From: Candidatus Saccharimonadota bacterium
GTDB lineage: Bacteria; Patescibacteriota; Gracilibacteria; UBA4473
Length of the DNA: 32,000 nt
Direction of reading: 5' to 3'
NCBI GenBank assembly: GCA_965228485.1
Contig: OZ245819.1
Span: 840,001-872,000 of the forward strand
Part shown: positions 3,032 through 22,646 of the stretch, piece by piece
How positions within the stretch are numbered: position 1 is the stretch's first letter
Layout of the letters: each line of letters starts with the position of its first letter
Translations under genes and position numbers: made by a program
Notes under the pieces: model-generated
What the model saw: only the letters and a program-made list of their open reading frames with translations
What the model was told of the DNA's origin: nothing
The model's database searches: none

Positions 3032-3085
3032 TTTGACTAGTATTGTTTTTGTGTCTTTCTTTTATATATAACTGCAGTATAGAGT

Positions 3086-4162
3086 ATGAATACTACCCCA
3101 AAGGTTGACGTAAACTTTTCAGAACTCATGTCACGACTATTAGGCCTTCTAAGTCCTAAAGAACGTGATGTTATTGAGCGACGATTTTCTCTTGCTGGAC
3201 ACAAAAAAGAGACACTAGACAAAATTGGAAAGAGCTATTCTATCACTCGAGAAAGGGTAAGACAAATTGAAGCAGTAGCGCTCAAAAAACTAGCTCGAAT
3301 CTCAATGGATCCGTCGATGAGACAGATTCATAACTTAGCATTTGAAATACTCAATGAAAACGGAAAAGTTATGCTTGAAGATCGACTTGTATCGGAGATG
3401 CTTAAAAACATGAACGATACAAAAAACATTGATACAAATGCTGTAAAACTTGCTATGAGAGTTTCTGATCGAATGATCAAACAAGATAAAAATCAGTTCT
3501 TTCGAGCTTTTTGGAGAACTTCTGACTTAACTTTGATGGAAGTAAGAACTCTTATCAAAGGTCTTCAGAAAACTATGAACAAAAAAGGGGATATTACTTC
3601 TACTGAGGAATTATTTGAAAAATTAAACAAAGATTATCCATTAAATATGATCGAATCTGCCCTAGAAGTAGATTGGAGCTTCAAAAGAACGGAAGAAGGA
3701 TGGGGTCTCAGTGCTTGGCGTCATATCAACCCGAAATCGATCAAAGATAAAATCATGATTGTTTTCAAAGAAGCCGGAAAACCACTCCACTTCACGGAAA
3801 TTGTAAATCATGTACTTAATGATTTTGATTCTAAAAAAATGGTAACCCACCAAGCTATTCATAATGAACTCATTCGACACGAAGACTTCGTTCTTGTTGG
3901 AAGAGGAATGTACGCTCTTAAAGGATGGGGGCTTGCGGCAGGAACAGTTTGCGATCTTATTGTTCAGGTTCTACAAGAAAATGGAGATCCAATGAAGCGG
4001 CAAGATATTATCAATGCTGTGTTAAAAAAGAGAGATATCCGAATTGGAACGATTTCCCTAAACCTGCAAAAATACGATTTCTTTAAACGTGTGGGGCGGG
4101 CAGTATACGAATATGCTCCAGAAATGGACAAAAGACGAAGAAACAAGAAAGGAGAAGTTTAA
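3086..4162 (+). CDS. Orphan sigma-70 region-4 domain fused to C-terminal HARE-HTH-like (RNAP delta-like) winged-helix domains
   Basis: The N-terminus LSPKERDVIERRFSLAGHKKETLDKIGKSYSITRERVRQIEAVALKKL closely matches RpoD region 4.2, but no region 2 or 3 is present. The C-terminus KPLHFTEIVNHVL...HEDFVLVGRGMYALKGWG has the HARE-HTH pattern. A second similar module follows (DPMKRQDIINAVL...FFKRVGRAVYEY). Confidence 0.6.
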   Translation: MNTTPKVDVNFSELMSRLLGLLSPKERDVIERRFSLAGHKKETLDKIGKSYSITRERVRQIEAVALKKLARISMDPSMRQIHNLAFEILNENGKVMLEDRLVSEMLKNMNDTKNIDTNAVKLAMRVSDRMIKQDKNQFFRAFWRTSDLTLMEVRTLIKGLQKTMNKKGDITSTEELFEKLNKDYPLNMIESALEVDWSFKRTEEGWGLSAWRHINPKSIKDKIMIVFKEAGKPLHFTEIVNHVLNDFDSKKMVTHQAIHNELIRHEDFVLVGRGMYALKGWGLAAGTVCDLIVQVLQENGDPMKRQDIINAVLKKRDIRIGTISLNLQKYDFFKRVGRAVYEYAPEMDKRRRNKKGEV

Positions 4163-12636: not shown

Positions 12637-13632
12637 TTAAAGTTTTTCAGCAAGTTCAACAAGACGGCATGAATATCCCCATTCATTATCATACCAAGAA
12701 AGAACCTTAACAAGGTCTCCCATCACATAAGTCGAATCTGCATCAAAAATAGAGCTTCTCGAGTCTTGTTTGAAGTCCATAGAAACTAGTGGCTTGTCAG
12801 AATATCCCAAGATATGTGGATTCTTGTCACTTGCGGCCTTAACTGCGGCATTAACTTCTTCTACTGTGGCTGATTTTTCAACCTTGATCGTTAGATCTAC
12901 AAGAGACACTGTTGGAGTTGGAACTCGAACAGCCATTCCTGTAAGCTTTCCTTTTAGTTCAGGAAGTACTAGTGCCACAGCTTTGGCTGCTCCCGTACTT
13001 GTTGGAACCATGTTAAGAGCTGCTGCTCGTCCTCGACGTAAATCTTTGCCCCCTAAATCAAGTACTGGTTGGCTTGTCGTGTAAGAATGAATTGTGGTCA
13101 TAAGTCCTGATTCAATACCGAATTCATCATTAAGAACTTTAGCGACAGGAGCTAAACAGTTCGTTGTACATGAAGCATTTGAAATTAAAGTTTCATCTCC
13201 TCTAATCTGATCGCAATTAGCTCCAATTACATACGTATCAAACCCATCCCCTTTAGCTGGAGCTGAAATCACAACTTTCTTTGCTCCTTGATCTAAGTGT
13301 AGAGAAGCTCCTTCTTTTTTCCGAAAAACCCCCGTACACTCGAGTACAATATCAATACCAAGATCCCCCCAGGGAAGCTCTGAAATTTCTCGAGTAGTGA
13401 ACTTTTGAATCTCTTTTCCGTCGATCACAAGTGTGTCTTCGCCCTCTGGCTCTACTGTTCCCGGGTATCGACCAAAATTTGAGTCATAGGCGAAGAGTAG
13501 TGCGCTATGCTCGATTGGTGAGGGATCATTAATTGCCACCAATTCCAAGGTGTCTTTATGATCTTGCATAATAATGCGGGCAGCCGATCGTCCGATTCGA
13601 CCAAATCCATTAATGGCAACTCGTTTTTTCAT
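12637..13632 (-). CDS. gap: Glyceraldehyde-3-phosphate dehydrogenase
   Basis: NGFGRIGR, SNASCTTNCLAP, WYDNEWGYS. Confidence 0.95.
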   Translation of the reverse strand: MKKRVAINGFGRIGRSAARIIMQDHKDTLELVAINDPSPIEHSALLFAYDSNFGRYPGTVEPEGEDTLVIDGKEIQKFTTREISELPWGDLGIDIVLECTGVFRKKEGASLHLDQGAKKVVISAPAKGDGFDTYVIGANCDQIRGDETLISNASCTTNCLAPVAKVLNDEFGIESGLMTTIHSYTTSQPVLDLGGKDLRRGRAAALNMVPTSTGAAKAVALVLPELKGKLTGMAVRVPTPTVSLVDLTIKVEKSATVEEVNAAVKAASDKNPHILGYSDKPLVSMDFKQDSRSSIFDADSTYVMGDLVKVLSWYDNEWGYSCRLVELAEKL

Positions 13633-13726
13633 GTGAATGATAAATTTTAAAAATCGTCGGTATTATACTTATTTTCAGGTTAGAGTTCTAAATTTTATCT
13701 AGACTTTTTTCCCCCAGAATAAAATT

Positions 13727-13755
13727 TTGACATTTATAACGATCAAAACTAATCT
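13727..13755 (+). promoter_or_regulatory. Candidate sigma-70-type promoter for the thrS leader
   Basis: TTGACA (13727-13732), 17-nt spacer, TAATCT (13750-13755). The predicted TSS near 13761-13763 sits only a few nt before the leader ATG at 13765. Confidence 0.45.
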
Positions 13756-13764
13756 CCAACTTGA

Positions 13765-13812
13765 ATGTTCACTGCATCAACAACACAGACCACAACGACC
13801 ACACCAGTTTAA
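13765..13812 (+). CDS. Thr-rich leader peptide (15 codons) of thrS
   Basis: ATG TTC ACT GCA TCA ACA ACA CAG ACC ACA ACG ACC ACA CCA GTT TAA encodes MFTASTTQTTTTTPV. That is 8 of 15 codons Thr, with 5 consecutive (13789-13803). The stop codon abuts the antiterminator strand. Confidence 0.6.
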   Translation: MFTASTTQTTTTTPV

Positions 13813-13841
13813 CTGGAGGTTTGTGAAGTAACATATTACAA

Positions 13842-13874
13842 TCTCCAGGACAAAAACAACTGGAGAATTTTTTT
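13842..13874 (+). terminator. Intrinsic terminator (attenuator) in the thrS leader
   Basis: Perfect 7-bp stem TCTCCAG (13842-13848) / CTGGAGA (13860-13866), 11-nt loop, then A plus T7 (13868-13874), 13 nt before the thrS ATG. The upstream copy of AACTGGAG (13811-13818) can pair with the same CTCCAG strand as an alternative antiterminator. Confidence 0.65.
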
Positions 13875-13886
13875 AATAAAAATCTT

Positions 13887-15644
13887 ATGAAAAACGACAA
13901 TATCACTCTTGAAGAAAAACGAAGACATACAGCTTCTCACATACTCTCGTATGCAGTTGGAATGGTATTTGGAAAAGAAATTAAAAGGGGTGTTGGACCT
14001 TGGACGAGCGAAGGATATTATCAAGATTTTGATTTTGAAGAATTAGAAGTCTCTGATAAGGACTTCAAAAAAATTGAGAAAAAGATGCGCTGGATTGTTA
14101 ATAAAAATTTTAAGGTAGAGCGTGTCGAAAAAACTCCTGAAGAAGCTCGAAATTACTTTGAGCACGATGAGTACAAATTGGAATTGATTAATGAAATTGT
14201 TGAAAGGGGAGAAGCGCTTACCTTTCATAATTTTGTGAATGATGAAGGAGTACATGTTTACCAAGATTTGTGTGCTGGTGGACATCTGGCTTCAACTGGA
14301 GAAATTGGTGTTTTTCGCATCACAAAACTAGCAGGCGCTTACTGGAGAGGGGACGCTGAAAACGCTATGATGACTCGAATCTACGGAGTTGCTTTTGAGA
14401 ACGAGGAAAAACTAAAAGCCTACGAAGAACTTCTCGCAGAAGCCGCAAAAAGAGACCACCGAAAACTCGGGGCTGAGCTTGATCTTTTCACTTTTTCGGA
14501 AAAAGTTGGATCAGGACTACCTCTTTTTACCCCAAAGGGAACTTTTTTGAGAAATAAGGTTGAAGAAACTATTATGGACATTCAGTCTAAATATGGATTT
14601 GAGAAGGTTCACATTCCACACATTACCAAAAAAGATCTTTATGAGACCTCTGGTCATTGGGACAAGTTTAAAGATGACCTATTTCATGTACACGGGAAGG
14701 GAGAAACAGCCTTTGTAATGAAGCCAATGAACTGTCCTCACCATACACAAATCTATGCTTCTAAAATGAGGTCTTATCGAGACCTCCCTATTCGATACGC
14801 AGAAACTACAACTTGCTACCGAGATGAACTTCCAGGTGAACTACTCGGCCTTTCTCGAGTTAGGTCTCTTACTCAGGATGATGGACACACTTTTTGTCGG
14901 ATTAATCAGGTTGGAGATGAGGTTCGATCACTGGTTAAAGTCATTAAAGAATTTTATACAAAGCTGGGAATGTTTAATGAAGGTGATTTTTGGGTCAGCT
15001 TGTCAGTGAGAGACCCTAAAACTCCTGAAAAATATCTTGGAGAAAAAGAAAACTGGGAAAAAGCAGAGGGATTTCTTGAAGGGGTGGCTGAATCTGAAGG
15101 GCTACCTTATAAACGAGTTGAAGGAGAGGCCGCATTTTATGGTCCAAAGCTTGATTTTCAATTTAAAGATGCCATTGGTCGTCAGTGGCAACTGGCCACA
15201 GTCCAAATAGATTTTGTGATGCCTGATCGTTTTGAACTCGAATACATAAATGAAGCAGGTCAAAAAGAACGTCCGGTAATGATTCACCGAGCTATTGCTG
15301 GATCATTGGAACGCTTCATGTCTGTGATCATTGAACATTTTGCTGGAGCTTTCCCTGCTTGGTTAGCGCCTGTCCAGGCTCACATATTGCCTGTTAACAC
15401 CGCTCATGAAGATTTCGCCTATGACCTGGCTAAAAAATTAAAGTCTCAAGGCGCTAGGATTGAAACCTATGAGACTAGTGAATCTCTAGGGAAAAGAATC
15501 CGTAATACTCAAAAAGGGAAAATTCCATTTGCCATTGTTATTGGAGATAAAGAAATGGAAACAGGTAATTTAACGGTTAGAGCTTACGGAGAGGATGAAG
15601 ATAAAAGTGTAGATATAGAAACCTTTCTAGAGTGGTTAAACTAA
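13887..15644 (+). CDS. thrS: Threonyl-tRNA synthetase (no N-terminal TGS domain)
   Basis: 585 aa. SAD/editing HTASH motif at the N-terminus, class II core (FVMKPMNCPHH, RVRSLTQDDGHTF, PVMIHRAIAGSLERF) and an anticodon-binding C-terminus. Confidence 0.95.
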   Translation: MKNDNITLEEKRRHTASHILSYAVGMVFGKEIKRGVGPWTSEGYYQDFDFEELEVSDKDFKKIEKKMRWIVNKNFKVERVEKTPEEARNYFEHDEYKLELINEIVERGEALTFHNFVNDEGVHVYQDLCAGGHLASTGEIGVFRITKLAGAYWRGDAENAMMTRIYGVAFENEEKLKAYEELLAEAAKRDHRKLGAELDLFTFSEKVGSGLPLFTPKGTFLRNKVEETIMDIQSKYGFEKVHIPHITKKDLYETSGHWDKFKDDLFHVHGKGETAFVMKPMNCPHHTQIYASKMRSYRDLPIRYAETTTCYRDELPGELLGLSRVRSLTQDDGHTFCRINQVGDEVRSLVKVIKEFYTKLGMFNEGDFWVSLSVRDPKTPEKYLGEKENWEKAEGFLEGVAESEGLPYKRVEGEAAFYGPKLDFQFKDAIGRQWQLATVQIDFVMPDRFELEYINEAGQKERPVMIHRAIAGSLERFMSVIIEHFAGAFPAWLAPVQAHILPVNTAHEDFAYDLAKKLKSQGARIETYETSESLGKRIRNTQKGKIPFAIVIGDKEMETGNLTVRAYGEDEDKSVDIETFLEWLN

Positions 15645-15645
15645 T

Positions 15646-16545
15646 ATGAAAGCTCATCTCGAAAATGGTTTTTTTTGGGCTGGACTTGCTGTCTTTGGGT
15701 TCTCTTTAGCTGTTATTTTTGGAAAGTTAGCCATTAACTCTCATCCTGGTATTTCTTTTTATAATGTAGCTTTGTGGGGTTGGACAAGCGGAATACTGGG
15801 AGCGACTCTTAGTTTTTACCTTCCTATTAGAACTCAAAGAGAAAGACTTATTCCTGAACTTAGGACCCATAAAAAATTTATCGCTCTTATTACTGCTCTC
15901 ACGGTTGGGAATGGATTACTTTGGTTCTGTGCTATGGAGCATCTCTCTGGGGGAGTTGTATCACTACTAGATCAAAACGCTTTTATTTGGTCCTTTGCTC
16001 TTGGAGTTTTATTTCTTGGAGAAAGATTTTCTCAAAAAGAAATATTCGCCATTTTGGTTATGATCTTAGGTCTCATAATTATCTCTGGTCTCAAAGGCGA
16101 GGTAACCTGGATCGGAGTATTGGCCTCTCTTGGTGCAGGATTTTTTATTGCCGTACAAAGTGTTGTGATGAAACGCTATAAAAATACATTTAACGCCCTC
16201 TCTCTGACATTTTGGAGAGCCTGGGGTCTCTGTGTAGCTACTTTTATTATTTTTGGCTTACAAGGGAAATTACAACTATCAGTCCCCCTGAATTTTTTCA
16301 TTCTTATTTTTATTAGCCAATATCTTGGACTTTTTATTGGTAGAGCCGCTTATATCAAAGCTCACGAATACCTTCCCATTGGACAATTGAGCTTTATGAT
16401 GCTCTTTATCCCTGTCATTGTTCTCAGTGGTGCGTTCTTATTTCTTCAAGAGGGCATCTCCGCTCAAAAGCTTACTGGATCTTTAATTATGCTTTTAGGC
16501 CTTTTTTGGTTTTTATATGAAAAAAGGCTTCTATCAAAAGACTAG
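15646..16545 (+). CDS. EamA/DMT-family transporter
   Basis: 299 aa, about 10 TM helices. Starts 2 nt after the thrS stop. Confidence 0.55.
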   Translation: MKAHLENGFFWAGLAVFGFSLAVIFGKLAINSHPGISFYNVALWGWTSGILGATLSFYLPIRTQRERLIPELRTHKKFIALITALTVGNGLLWFCAMEHLSGGVVSLLDQNAFIWSFALGVLFLGERFSQKEIFAILVMILGLIIISGLKGEVTWIGVLASLGAGFFIAVQSVVMKRYKNTFNALSLTFWRAWGLCVATFIIFGLQGKLQLSVPLNFFILIFISQYLGLFIGRAAYIKAHEYLPIGQLSFMMLFIPVIVLSGAFLFLQEGISAQKLTGSLIMLLGLFWFLYEKRLLSKD

Positions 16546-18279: not shown

Positions 18280-21200
18280 TTAGTTTTCTTCATTTTCCGC
18301 TGTATCAGCGGCTTTATAATGTTTACCAGCTGGGATTAGCCGGCCGATAATAACGTTCTCTTTCAATCCGTCAAGCATATCTACTTTTCTTGTTGTAGAA
18401 GCCTCTACTAGAACTCGGATAGTTTCTTGGAACGAAGCCGCTGAAAGCCATGAATCTGTCCAGAGAGAAATTCGTGTTAGACCTAGTAGCAATCTTTCAT
18501 AAGTAATTTCTTTCTTTTTCTCTTTAGTTAGTAATTCATTAGCTTGATCAATTTCAATTACATCTCTCACCTCTCCTGGAAGGTATTCTGAATCACCTCC
18601 GTCAATAATTCGAACTTTTGAAGCCATTTGTTTAGCAATGATTTCAATATGTTTTTCATTAATATGTTGACCTTGAGAGGCATAAATATACTGAACTTCG
18701 TAAAGAATATATTCTTGCACTTTCTCTACATTTGTCAGCTCCATTAGCTGTCGAAGATCAATATGTCCTACCGTTAAAGGTGTACCTTTCTCTACTATTT
18801 CTCCATCTTTAATTTTTAGAGTGGTTCGGTGAGAAACCGTGTAGGTTTTCTTTAAGGCTTCAGATTGTTTAATCGTAATATGATCTTTTCCAACCTTAAC
18901 AACGGTACCATCACATCTTGATTTGACCGTCTTTTTATCTTCTGTACTTCGAGCAATAATTTGCTTTTCTTTTACTTTATCTCCCTTTTTAACCGCTGCA
19001 TCGAAGTTAATGCTCAGATGATGTACATCTTCTTCTGCACTTTCGGCTTCAACAAGAATTTTTGTATCGTTCTTACCTTTTTTAATCGTTACCTTACCTG
19101 TAATCTCAGCAAGAATTGATGGTGTTTTAGGGCTTCTTGCTTCAAATAATTCATCTACACGAGTAAGACCTTGTGTAATAGAGGCTCCTTCTGTTGCTAC
19201 TCCTCCCATATGGAAGGTACGCATTGTAAGCTGAGTACCTGGTTCTCCAATGGATTGGGCTGCAATAATTCCTACTGGGGTACCTTTTTCTACGACTTTT
19301 CTATTTCCAAGATCGTGACCGTAACACTTCTGACATACTCCTCCAAGTGTTTTACAGTACATCACTGAGTGAACGGCAATTTCAGAAATTTGATGATCTC
19401 TAATTCTTTGAATTTGATCATCTTCAATCACTTCTCCTTTTTTAATAACTGTTTTTCCTTTTACTTTTACATCTTCTCCGACTGTCAATCCATATACTCT
19501 TTCTTCAAAGGGAACTCCCAAGAAGTCTGAGTTTTCTCGAGTAATAGTTTTGAAAGTTGTCGTTCCACAATCTGGTTCTCGAACAATAATATCTTGTACC
19601 GAATCTACCAGACGTCGAGTTAGGTATCCTGCTTCGGCTGTTTTTAGAGCCGTATCTGATTTACCTTTACGTCCTCCATGAGTCGCAATAAAGTATTCAA
19701 GAATTGTAAACCCTTCTTTTAGATTAGATTTAATTGGAAGTTCAATTGTTTTTCCTGATGGAGAGGCTACTAATCCCTTAATACCAGCCATCTGAGTAAT
19801 CTGTCCCCAATTCCCTCGGGCGCCTGAATCAATTTGATAAAAGATATCATTTTGTTCGTCGTACTCTTTAATCATCTCAGTTGTAATATCTGATTTGATT
19901 TTTGACCAGATTTTAATGGTATGGTTATATCTTTCTTCATCAGTGATAAGTCCATAGAAGTACTGATCATTAATAGAATTAACAATATGATTCGCTTTTT
20001 CTACGATATCATCTTTATTTTCTGGCGAAGCTAAATCATAAGCGGAGATAGTAATTCCTGATTTAGTCGCATATTTAAATCCAAGATCTTTAATTTTATC
20101 AGCTAATACAGAAGCTTTTCCATCACCATATTGAGTGAAAACATCTGCAAGAATATTTTTTAATTCATTCTTACCAAAAGTCTTATTTTGGTATCCAACC
20201 TCTTCTGGAAGTTCTTGATTAAAAATAATTCGACCAACCGTCGTTTCAATTACTTCACCATCAACTCGAACTTTAATTTTAGCCTGTAGGTGAACTTGAC
20301 CTGTTTCATAAGCGTAAATAGCTGATTCACTACTTGGAAATACTCGTCCTTCACCTTCTTTTCCTTCGTGTTCTTGAGTAAGAAAGTAACATCCCAATAC
20401 CATATCCTGAGAAGGGTTAACAATAGGTTCTCCAGCTGATGGCTTAAGAAGGTTTTTAGAAGAAACAATAATTTCTCGAGCTTCTTTTTGGGCATCATCA
20501 GAAAGTGGTAAATGAACGGCCATTTGATCCCCATCGAAATCCGCATTAAAAGCCGCACATACTAGAGGATGAAGTTGAATGGCTTTTCCCTCTACTAATC
20601 GTGGTTGAAAAGCTTGAATTCCAAGTCTATGAAGTGTTGGAGCACGATTTAGAAGTACATATTTACCTTCAATTACTTCGTCTAAAATATCCCAAACCAC
20701 TTTTTCTCCATTTTTAATTAATTTTTCTGCACTCTTAACATTATGAGCTAAATCAAATCCAATAAGTTTAGAAATAACAAAAGGTTTAAAAAGTTCTAGA
20801 GCAATTTTCTTAGGAAGACCGCACTCATGAAGTCTTAGAGTTGGACCTACAACAATTACAGAACGTCCAGAATAATCTACTCGTTTCCCAAGTAGATTTT
20901 GTCGGAAACGCCCTTGTTTTCCTTTAAGCATATCCGAAAGACTTCTAAGTCTTCGCCTTTGTACTTGATTTACTCCTGATCGAGAATTTCGAACAGAGTT
21001 AGAAATTAAAATATCAACGGCTTCTTGAAGCATTCTTTTCTCATTTCGACAAATAATTTCAGGCGCTCCAAGTTGAATTAATTTTTTTAATCGAGCATTA
21101 CGATTAATTACTCTTCTATAAAGATCATTAAGATCAGAAGTTGCAAAACGTCCTCCATCAAGCTGAACCATTGGTCGAAGCTCTGGTGGAATTACTGGAA

Positions 21201-22119
21201 TAACTGTTAAAATCATCCATTCAGGACGAATCCCACTTCTTTCTAATGAAGAAGCGAGTTTAATTCTTTTTAATAATTTTTTCTCTTTTTGACCAGAAGA
21301 TTTTTTTTGATCTTCTTTCATTTCTTCAATAAATTTTGGTAAATCCATTTTTTGGATTACTTCTCTAATAGCATCAGCACCAATTCCTGCTCGGAAAACA
21401 TGCCCAAATTTCATTGATATATTTCTGTAGTCAGTTTCTGTTAAAACCTGACCTACCTGTAAATTCTTAAGCTCATCTTTGGCTAAACGGAAATTCTCAT
21501 TTACTTCTTCTATTTTTTGAACAATTTCATTTTCAAGAGCCGTAAAATCTTTTTCTATCATATCGCCATCTTTTACTGCTTTTTTAGCCGCTTTAAGACT
21601 AGCACTTGTCTCTTCTTTTGTTTGATTAATAATTTTCTGATAATCCGTTTCCAATTCTTTTAGAGCTTCTTCTTTTTCTTCTTCATCAACATCAACCACT
21701 AAATAAGAAGCAAAATAAACAATTTGCTCTAACTGTTTAACAGAAAGATCCATTAATAATCCAATCCTAGAAGGAGTAGATCTTAAAAACCAAGTATGAG
21801 TTACAGGAACTGCTAATTTTATGTGTCCCATTCGTTCTCGTCGAACAATAGAACGGGTTACTTCAACTCCACATCGTTCACAAATAATACCTTTATATCT
21901 AATTCTTTTATACTTACCACAAGCACATTCCCAGTTTTTTACTGGACCAAAAATTTTCTGACAAAATAAACCATCTGGTTCTGGTTTTTGAGTTCGGTAA
22001 TTAATCGTCTCAGGTTTTGTAACTTCTCCATGAGACCAAGATAAAATTTCTTCGGGTGACGCAATAGATAGTGCAATCGCATCGAAGTCTTTGATTTTTT
22101 TGATGTTGCTCATAAACAA
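18280..22119 (-). CDS. rpoC: DNA-directed RNA polymerase beta-prime subunit
   Basis: 1279 aa. Zn-finger [23 protein letters not shown], catalytic [12 protein letters not shown], and trigger-loop and bridge-helix regions. Stop lies 20 nt before rpsL. Confidence 0.97.
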
Positions 22120-22240
22120 TCTTTGAGTTTAAAAAGTACTTTTTTTGTAGTTTCTAAGGGCTTTTTCAGTGTTTAAGAATTATGTTTAAACCAATTCTCG
22201 TAATCTTCTTAAAACCAAAAAAGACAATAAAATTTCTACC

Positions 22241-22258
22241 AAAAGGTCTGGCCAGACC
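22241..22258 (-). promoter_or_regulatory. Perfect 14-nt palindrome / short hairpin in the rpoC 5' leader
   Basis: GGTCTGGCCAGACC (22245-22258), followed on the minus strand by TTTTGG. It is the only GC-rich element in the 527-bp AT-rich gap. It could be a weak attenuator hairpin or a protein-binding site. Confidence 0.3.
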
Positions 22259-22276
22259 ATGTTTAAAACACGCGCG

Positions 22277-22304
22277 AATATAGGTAAAAAGTTAATTTAG
22301 TCAA
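22277..22304 (-). promoter_or_regulatory. Candidate sigma-70-type promoter for rpoC
   Basis: Minus strand TTGACT (22304-22299), 16-nt spacer, TATATT (22282-22277). It would give a leader of about 150 nt. Confidence 0.35.
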
Positions 22305-22402
22305 ATTGTTTCGAGTAAAAAATTAGTTTGTCAAACTTTTCTTTTCTTATTGTTTTTTATTAAAAATATTAATTATAGATTTAGTATTTATTAGTGATTT
22401 TT

Positions 22403-22642
22403 TGTGTATTGCTTTTTTTGTGTATTTTTCTTGTGGAAAAGTATAGTTTTTAAATCTATATATTTTTTAAGTTTTATAAAATTACTCAGAATTTTTGGCT
22501 TGTTTTTAATAAAAAACAGGATTAAAAAATTAGATCATAATAATATTTATTTTTTGTGGAAAAAATGAGTGTAAGTTGAGGAAAAGATATAAAAAAAATG
22601 AGGAAAAATATTCCTCATTAATATTAAATTTGTTTATACACA
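22403..22642. promoter_or_regulatory. Cluster of DnaA-box-like 9-mers in an AT-rich intergenic region
   Basis: TTTTCCACA on the minus strand at 22432-22440 and 22555-22563, and TTATACACA on the plus strand at 22634-22642; all three fit TTWTNCACA exactly. Weaker relatives are CAATACACA (22403-22411) and AAATACACA (22419-22427). Flanked by very AT-rich tracts at 22360-22400 and 22441-22550. Confidence 0.3.
22590..22619 (-). terminator. Intrinsic terminator after the nucleotidyltransferase gene
   Basis: Perfect 8-bp stem ATGAGGAA (22598-22605) / TTCCTCAT (22611-22618) with a 5-nt loop. On the minus strand it is followed by a T8 run. Lies about 30 nt downstream of the stop at 22647. Confidence 0.6.
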
Positions 22643-22646
22643 AAAA

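Follow-up and report, generated by a model that had tools for sequence, protein, structure and literature searches.

How does a bacterium that depends on others for amino acids adjust the production of an aminoacyl-tRNA synthetase (aaRS) to amino acid supply? Bacteria of the Candidate Phyla Radiation (CPR/Patescibacteria) do not make most amino acids and rely on hosts or scavenging. To our knowledge, almost nothing has been established about gene regulation in this group. The question arises from the region upstream of thrS, the gene for threonyl-tRNA synthetase (ThrRS), in a stretch of 32,000 nucleotides from a Candidatus Saccharimonadota bacterium (assembly GCA_965228485.1, contig OZ245819.1, positions 840,001 to 872,000), which as a whole is referred to as the window. 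A preliminary description had proposed that a short, Thr-rich open reading frame (ORF) in this region is the sensor of a terminator/antiterminator switch. We consider it likely that the region is a functional Thr-responsive leader-peptide transcription attenuator of thrS, as predicted from its anatomy, its alternative folds, and its conservation in related genomes.

Anatomy of the leader region

The anatomy was read directly from the window sequence; all features given here are on the plus strand. A −35 box (TTGACA, 13727–13732) and a −10 box (TAATCT, 13750–13755) are separated by a 17-nt spacer, and the −10 box ends 9 nt ahead of the ATG of the leader ORF. This ORF (13765–13812) has 15 codons, eight of them for Thr. 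It encodes MFTASTTQTTTTTPV and ends with the stop codon TAA (13810–13812). Five consecutive Thr codons (ACC ACA ACG ACC ACA, 13789–13803) form the proposed stall site. For a random window of 32 kb, 0.01 short ORFs with at least five consecutive Thr codons are expected on both strands together.

The leader transcript can be divided into four segments. Segment 1 (13784–13808) covers the Thr-codon run together with the two sense codons that precede the stop. Segment 2 (A CUGGAGGUUUGUGA, 13812–13826; directly 3′ of the leader stop, CUGGAGGUUUGUG) has segment 1 and segment 3 as alternative partners. Segment 3 (UUACAAUCUCCAG, 13836–13848; in the leader RNA, ACAAUCUCCAG) serves as the 3′ strand in the antiterminator helix, and part of it (13842–13848) doubles as the 5′ strand of the terminator. 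Segment 4 (13860–13874) provides the 3′ strand of the terminator, CUGGAGA (13860–13866), followed by an A and the tail of seven U (13868–13874). The repeats underlying these pairings are two copies of AACTGGAG (13811–13818 and 13858–13865) and the pair CTGGAG (13813–13818) and CTCCAG (13843–13848).

The promoter, the ORF with its Thr run, these repeats, the T7 run, and the ATG of thrS are all located where the preliminary description had placed them. The terminator has a 7-bp stem, an 11-nt loop, and the U7 tail. Its stem and T7 run agree with that description, and only the spacing to the ATG of thrS (13887–15644; 585 aa; TIGR00418, 629 bits with a cut-off of 383.65) has to be corrected, from 13 to 12 nt.

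Alternative pairings and their stability

Folding revealed a pairing that the preliminary description had missed. The G/U-rich part of segment 2 (13818–13825) has the outer strand of segment 1 (13784–13791, the Thr tract, ACNACN) as its partner, and the inner strand of segment 1, CCAGU (13804–13808), pairs with ACUGG (13812–13816). The last sense codons thus pair with the nucleotides just past the stop, and the loop of this hairpin contains the stop codon. The hairpin loops in the leader folds are UUUAA, GAAGUAACAUAU, and GACAAAAACAA. The three-segment model proposed previously was right about the antiterminator and terminator as alternatives, but it lacked segment 1 as a partner of segment 2. 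In that model, a leader that is not translated would fold into the antiterminator by default. The 1:2 pairing removes this flaw and turns the design into the classical trp-type scheme of 1:2, 2:3, and 3:4 pairings. Judged from folding and covariation (see below), these three predicted pairings are mutually exclusive.

Folds were scored against 200 shuffled sequences. In the window, the antiterminator (2:3) has a folding energy of −13.8 kcal/mol (z = −3.7, none of the 200 shuffles as good), the terminator (3:4) of −10.6 kcal/mol (z = −3.4, 2/200 as good), and the 1:2 pairing of −11.8 kcal/mol (z = −2.0). For the entire leader, the fold of lowest energy combines the 1:2 pairing with the terminator (−24.4 kcal/mol, z = −2.9). 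When segment 1 is masked, the antiterminator folds. When the 12 nt past the stop are masked, the terminator folds, in the window and in nearly all of the related loci described in the next section. Among 21 loci, the mean z was −3.3 for the antiterminator (below −2 in 19), −2.9 for the terminator (below −2 in 17), and −2.45 for the 1:2 pairing (below −2 in 13). The inner 1:2 hairpin was found in 20 of the 21 loci, and a run of at least five U follows the terminator stem in 17 of 22.

The window leader thus has what characterizes classical leader-peptide attenuators: an upstream short ORF rich in cognate codons, mutually exclusive 1:2, 2:3, and 3:4 pairings, and a 3:4 pairing that is an intrinsic terminator ahead of the regulated gene. 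The positions of stall site and stop codon also fit that class if the established footprint size of a ribosome is assumed.

Conservation upstream of thrS in related genomes

The regions upstream of thrS were inspected in 160 related loci (designated by L numbers). About 23 distinct loci carry the leader unit ahead of thrS (the window, L001–L009, L012, L013, L015, L016, L020, L028, L031, and L038, and further L074, L081, L083, L088, and L104). The unit comprises a TTGAC(A/T) promoter, a Thr-rich ORF whose stop codon lies in the loop of a hairpin, and the antiterminator and terminator with the U-run. The ThrRS of the leader-bearing relatives are 41–79% identical to that of the window, with the closest matches at 73–79%. 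The ThrRS relatives are from uncultured CPR/Patescibacteria labelled as Gracilibacteria, Peribacteria, Peregrinibacteria, and the DOLZORAL124_38_8 lineage, which we take to be Fertabacteria. A rough neighbour-joining tree of ThrRS distributes the leader over three or more clades; in the clade of the window, each of the 14 members has it.

The leader ORFs have 11–16 codons, and examples of peptides from relatives are MQQMTTTTTTTTH, MKNTTTTTTTITE, MKITNTTTTTITRI, MKNLITTTTTTTG, and MTTTTITTKTTTG. The non-Thr part of the peptide is not conserved. Thr accounts for 136 of 301 leader codons in 22 leaders (45%), compared to 5.3% in thrS of the window, and there are 4–9 Thr codons per leader, with the exception of the degenerate leader of L001. 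All four synonymous codons are in use (ACC 53, ACA 37, ACT 27, ACG 19). The final Thr codon lies two codons ahead of the stop in 14 of the 22 loci. The gap between the stop and segment 2 is 0–9 nt, and the GGAGG-like core of segment 2 is kept in most loci.

A survey free of ascertainment covered the 800 nt that precede thrS in each of 154 loci and recorded runs of at least four ACN triplets. It yielded 16 runs, and all 16 are in frame within a short ORF, with an ATG or GTG 1–7 codons upstream and a stop 0–8 codons downstream. This consistent placement argues for translation of the run rather than a mere RNA repeat. A generic scan for a promoter plus a short ORF with enrichment of any amino acid (160 loci and the window, both strands) returned the Thr leaders of thrS and two unrelated hits. 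Neither the window nor the related loci yielded comparable leader ORFs that are specific for another amino acid or precede another aaRS gene; nor does the window carry another aaRS gene, and the flanks lack class I aaRS genes. Within 876 kb, matches to a covariance model of the leader region (R1) were confined to these leader sites. The model missed the divergent, non-seed members L001, L002, L006, L012, L081, and L088, and it detected no additional copies elsewhere.

Several members deserve separate mention. In most loci, segment 2 contributes a Shine-Dalgarno-like (SD-like) GGAGG directly after the leader stop (13813–13819 in the window). In L004 (2303–3007), the leader MQKNTTATKTTIQA is accompanied by an antiterminator, a terminator, and U7, and an ORF for a membrane-protein-like product of about 170 aa is inserted between the leader and thrS; the attenuator would control a two-gene unit in this case. 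In L074 (about 2800–2960), the member MKNNIVTTTSTSS has the elements GGGAGG, CCUCCU, and AGGAGG followed by U6, and its thrS has the ribosome-binding site AAGGAG. This metagenome-assembled genome is labelled as Pseudomonadales; unless this label is unreliable, the leader family extends beyond the CPR. L088 (1348–3162) has a thrS of normal length with five in-frame TGA codons, which suggests that the genetic code of this lineage is altered (code 25 or 4), and it still has a Thr leader (MIMLVRTVATTNTNTL) with a TAA stop. Signs of recoding were found in L088 only among the loci checked. Genetic code 25 was also considered for the window and was rejected, as table 11 leaves the long ORFs uninterrupted and thrS is devoid of in-frame TGA codons.

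Covariation of the paired segments

RNAalifold, applied to an unguided MAFFT alignment of 17 leaders, returned no consensus structure, which we attribute to the variable loop lengths and to the competition between structures. We therefore used a manual, N-padded alignment of 21 sequences (A2), which MAFFT left almost unchanged, together with the covariance model. For the antiterminator and terminator helices, this alignment was anchored on one pair per helix and thus leans toward structure. With this bias, the antiterminator helix (12 pairs) has 76% of its cells paired and 42 double-change cells, compared to a mean of 15.4 in shuffled alignments (0/500 shuffles reach this value), and the terminator helix (9 pairs) has 74.9% paired and 32 double-change cells, compared to 13.2 (0/500). 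As a control, the 3′ partner of the antiterminator was slid by 1–3 columns, and pairing fell to 34–53%. The inner 1:2 hairpin (5 pairs) has 62% of cells paired and 14 double-change cells, compared to 7.9 in shuffles (1/500). Its alignment was not fitted to structure: the stop codon alone fixed the position of the 5′ strand, and for the 3′ strand the GGAGG anchor was the sole guide.

The preliminary description had suggested that the upstream regions of relatives be aligned to see if the Thr-rich mini-ORF and the alternative pairings are retained together. Conservation of the mini-ORF in about 23 loci and covariation of the pairings bear this out, and covariation in both helices of the switch agrees with its proposal that exclusive antiterminator and terminator structures place thrS under the control of Thr codons.

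Predicted leaderless translation of the leader ORF

The preliminary description had called the leader ORF essentially leaderless, and the promoters of the family agree with this. In 19 of 21 loci, the −35 box TTGAC(A/T) is followed at a distance of 16–17 nt by a TAnnnT hexamer, and the hexamer ends 7–10 nt before the ATG or GTG of the leader in 17 of the 21. This geometry puts the predicted transcription start on the start codon or 1–3 nt before it. A weak SD-like tetramer between the hexamer and the start codon was found in a single locus of the 21 (L006). The conserved promoter geometry supports our view that the leader ORF is probably translated as a leaderless mRNA.

In the window, neither the leader ORF nor thrS has an SD sequence of its own.

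Proposed mechanism

According to our model, transcription would start at the leader ATG or within about 3 nt of it, and translation would be leaderless. When Thr-tRNA is plentiful, the ribosome would reach the stop codon and cover the first 9–10 nt after it, which are the start of segment 2. With these covered, the 3:4 terminator would form, and transcription would end 12 nt before thrS. Without translation, the 1:2 pairing would form, and 3:4 would again terminate. When Thr-tRNA is scarce, the ribosome would stall with a Thr codon in its A site and mask segment 1. Such a ribosome would reach at most the first few nucleotides past the stop, so that segment 2 would stay free to form the 2:3 antiterminator, and RNA polymerase would continue into thrS. 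Most likely, the output of the synthetase is thus raised when charged tRNA-Thr is scarce; we infer this in vivo behaviour and the footprint geometry. Because the regulated gene encodes ThrRS, the result would be a homeostatic feedback loop on charged tRNA-Thr, as in pheST from E. coli.

Assessment of the model and of alternative explanations

Several points weigh against this interpretation. The −10 box is weak, as TAATCT fits the consensus at only three of six positions, and the terminator loop is long (11 nt). A simple scanner for consensus promoters and terminators called neither the promoter nor the terminator of the leader in the window. This can be explained by its thresholds, given the 3/6 match of the −10 box and a loop limit of 8 nt. 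In stability, the antiterminator exceeds the terminator (−13.8 vs. −10.6 kcal/mol), so that tight termination hinges on kinetics and on timely formation of the 1:2 pairing. The model presupposes leaderless initiation and transcription-translation coupling in these organisms. The anchoring of the alignment on the two switch helices also has to be counted here. Finally, the family is not uniform. The leader is absent upstream of thrS in the relatives L010, L011, L017, L036, and L084–L086. In L001 (upstream of 228), the folds are kept while the peptide MKNCATLTLIKKIA has just two Thr codons, and this leader looks degenerate. So do the leaders of L081/L082 and L003. L081/L082 (1375–1490) has four consecutive Thr codons and five in all, without a convincing terminator hairpin, and such a hairpin is also wanting in L003.

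These points have to be weighed together with other explanations for the same features. AT-rich spacers often contain short ORFs and weak hairpins, and the scanner result would fit their chance co-occurrence in this one. Given the 0.01 ORFs of this type expected per 32 kb, the shuffle z values of −3.4 to −3.7, and about 23 conserved and covarying loci, chance is next to impossible and is effectively refuted by the comparative data. It is unlikely that the switch senses general translation capacity, i.e., any slowdown or shortage of ribosomes, instead of Thr-tRNA specifically. From the mechanism, any stall or delay inside segment 1 would favour the antiterminator and failed initiation would favour termination, but Thr codons make up 45% of the leader codons beside a Thr-specific gene, and Thr is the sole amino acid that was enriched in the generic scan.

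We regard it as very unlikely that the ACN repeat is untranslated and acts as an RNA element that biases the same switch by binding ThrRS, another protein, or, in the manner of a T-box, tRNA-Thr. Autoregulation of ThrRS through an RNA operator is known from E. coli, T-boxes govern thrS in relatives, and part of the conservation of the ACN run could be structural, since it pairs with the G/U-rich segment 2. Yet every run of at least four ACN triplets is in frame with a nearby start and stop, the start codon is at a fixed distance from the −10 box, the third codon position is unconstrained, with all four Thr codons in use, and the stop codon is always just ahead of segment 2. In addition, there is no match to a T-box or any other Rfam family, and a T-box would not fit into a leader of about 110 nt. 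With a promoter and a terminator of its own, the unit might mainly yield a trans-acting small RNA of about 110 nt, with control of thrS being incidental or secondary. Trans-acting small RNAs derived from attenuators are documented, e.g., rnTrpL of Sinorhizobium (PMC6614838). We consider this quite unlikely, because the element is always on the same strand and directly upstream of thrS, whatever the upstream neighbour, because no copy occurs elsewhere in the 876 kb scanned, and because the Thr-codon content suits the downstream gene; a role in trans would supplement attenuation in cis and not replace it.

Relationship to known regulatory systems

The attenuator proposed here resembles several known systems. 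The thrL attenuator from E. coli likewise has a leader peptide rich in Thr (and Ile), four segments, an intrinsic terminator, and a stop near segment 2. It controls the biosynthetic genes thrABC and not an aaRS gene, it has an SD sequence and a 5′ untranslated region of its own, and it belongs to Gammaproteobacteria. The window leader has no similarity to E. coli thrL or to the Rfam family Thr_leader (RF00506) in sequence or by covariance model; RF00506 was not matched in 13400–14100 at E ≤ 10 or in the whole window at the gathering score. The same searches returned no other relevant Rfam match. A weak match of the leader region to NsiR1 was rejected, as it merely reflects the terminator hairpin. 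The E. coli pheST operon is, as is well established, an aaRS operon under leader-peptide attenuation (pheM) with feedback on the cognate charged tRNA. It differs from the window leader in its Phe codons, its SD-dependent leader, its unrelated sequence, and its phylum.

Another system acting on thrS is the Thr (ACC) T-box upstream of this gene in Bacillus and relatives. Gene, signal (the charging of tRNA-Thr), and output (terminator or antiterminator) are the same. The T-box senses by direct tRNA binding to an RNA of about 220 nt, whereas the sensor proposed here is the translating ribosome. The T-box family RF00230 has no match in the window. Upstream of thrS in the distant relatives L026, L024, L018, L021, and L043 it has matches with E values from 1e-18 to 5e-4 (down to 1e-20 for the T-box leaders as a whole), all of which score below the Rfam gathering cut-off. 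The one in L026 (2630–2868) has an ACC (Thr) specifier. The presence of T-boxes at the same place in distant relatives indicates that two types of sensor share one regulatory niche. T-box-like motifs were also seen in L073/L075/L152.

The translational operator of E. coli thrS also exerts feedback on thrS through the 5′ leader. There, ThrRS binds tRNA-like anticodon-arm hairpins that overlap the ribosome-binding site of thrS. By inspection, the leader folds in the window contain no 7-nt anticodon-like loops. Unlike in the E. coli operator, a U-run follows the last hairpin of the leader, and the end of this hairpin is 20 nt away from the ATG of thrS. A further parallel is found in mycobacteria. 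Polycysteine upstream ORFs, reportedly described by Shell et al. 2015 and Canestrari et al. 2020, are also leaderless short ORFs with a run of one codon type. They are said to report the supply of that amino acid and to act on the downstream operon without a classical 2:3/3:4 intrinsic-terminator switch.

The preliminary description had regarded a Thr-leader attenuator on thrS as undescribed. This holds for the present family and lineage and is too strong for the concept, because a leaderless short ORF named thrL has been annotated directly upstream of thrS in Streptomyces lividans and proposed to be Thr-dependent (PMC8079986). Its peptide MKRVRPFLETTPGFVPAR has two Thr, it is followed by one hairpin without a U-run, and support from alternative structures or comparative data is not reported (PMC8079986). 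The family analysed here differs by three covarying helices and by a clear terminator in most loci, and the sequences are unrelated. The mechanism itself is textbook; the lineage and the regulated gene are without an earlier description in the searchable literature. Within that literature, ours is the best-supported case of leader-peptide attenuation on thrS, the sole other one being the weak annotation from Streptomyces. Our searches retrieved no account of a Thr-codon leader of thrS beyond Streptomyces, and no full-text paper on leader-peptide attenuation in CPR. An earlier prediction may be contained in Lopatovskaya et al. 2010 (Mol Biol 44:128), which is said to be a comparative survey of attenuation in amino acid and aminoacyl-tRNA operons.

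On the basis of the sequences compared, we tend to think that this is the first leader-peptide attenuator family recognized in CPR. It would span Gracilibacteria, Peribacteria, Peregrinibacteria, and Fertabacteria-type genomes, including a TGA-recoded one. It would be leaderless, occupy the niche of the T-box, and, in the clade of the window, co-regulate thrS and an EamA-family transporter, possibly one for amino acids. Some CPR thus probably sense charged tRNA-Thr via the translating ribosome, while neighbouring lineages use a T-box. If true, this would imply tight transcription-translation coupling and 70S leaderless initiation in ultra-small, largely uncultured bacteria, and it would provide a marker, readable from sequence, of how these bacteria sense amino acid supply. 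With its length of about 150 bp, the leader is compact enough to be testable as a part in heterologous or cell-free systems.

The downstream transporter gene and the genomic context

The gene next to thrS codes for a transporter of the EamA/DMT family (15646–16545, plus strand; Pfam EamA, 1.5e-24, with a weak match to TIGR00950). It starts 1 nt past the stop of thrS, and among the closest relatives of the window, the thrS-eamA pair is also found in L001, L002/L093, L007, and L081/L082. It is probably co-transcribed with thrS and therefore co-regulated, so that the attenuator probably also sets its expression. This arrangement suggests that the transporter may be a member of a threonine-responsive operon. 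RhtA from E. coli, an exporter of threonine and homoserine, is a member of the EamA/DMT family.

On the other side, thrS is preceded by a divergently oriented gene for glyceraldehyde-3-phosphate dehydrogenase. The window carries the housekeeping genes rpoC, rpsL, rpsG, recA, lexA, tsaD, purB, folE, folK, and thyA, and it also codes for a superoxide dismutase and RNase J. Upstream of rpoC (18280–22128, minus strand) is an AT-rich gap of 518 bp (22129–22646; GC about 0.27). The gene beyond this gap codes for a GlmU-like nucleotidyltransferase and is not rpoB; rpoB and rpoC are thus not adjacent in the window. A protein encoded at 3083–4162 (plus strand) combines an N-terminal sigma-70 region 4 with a HARE-HTH domain and looks like an unusual regulator.

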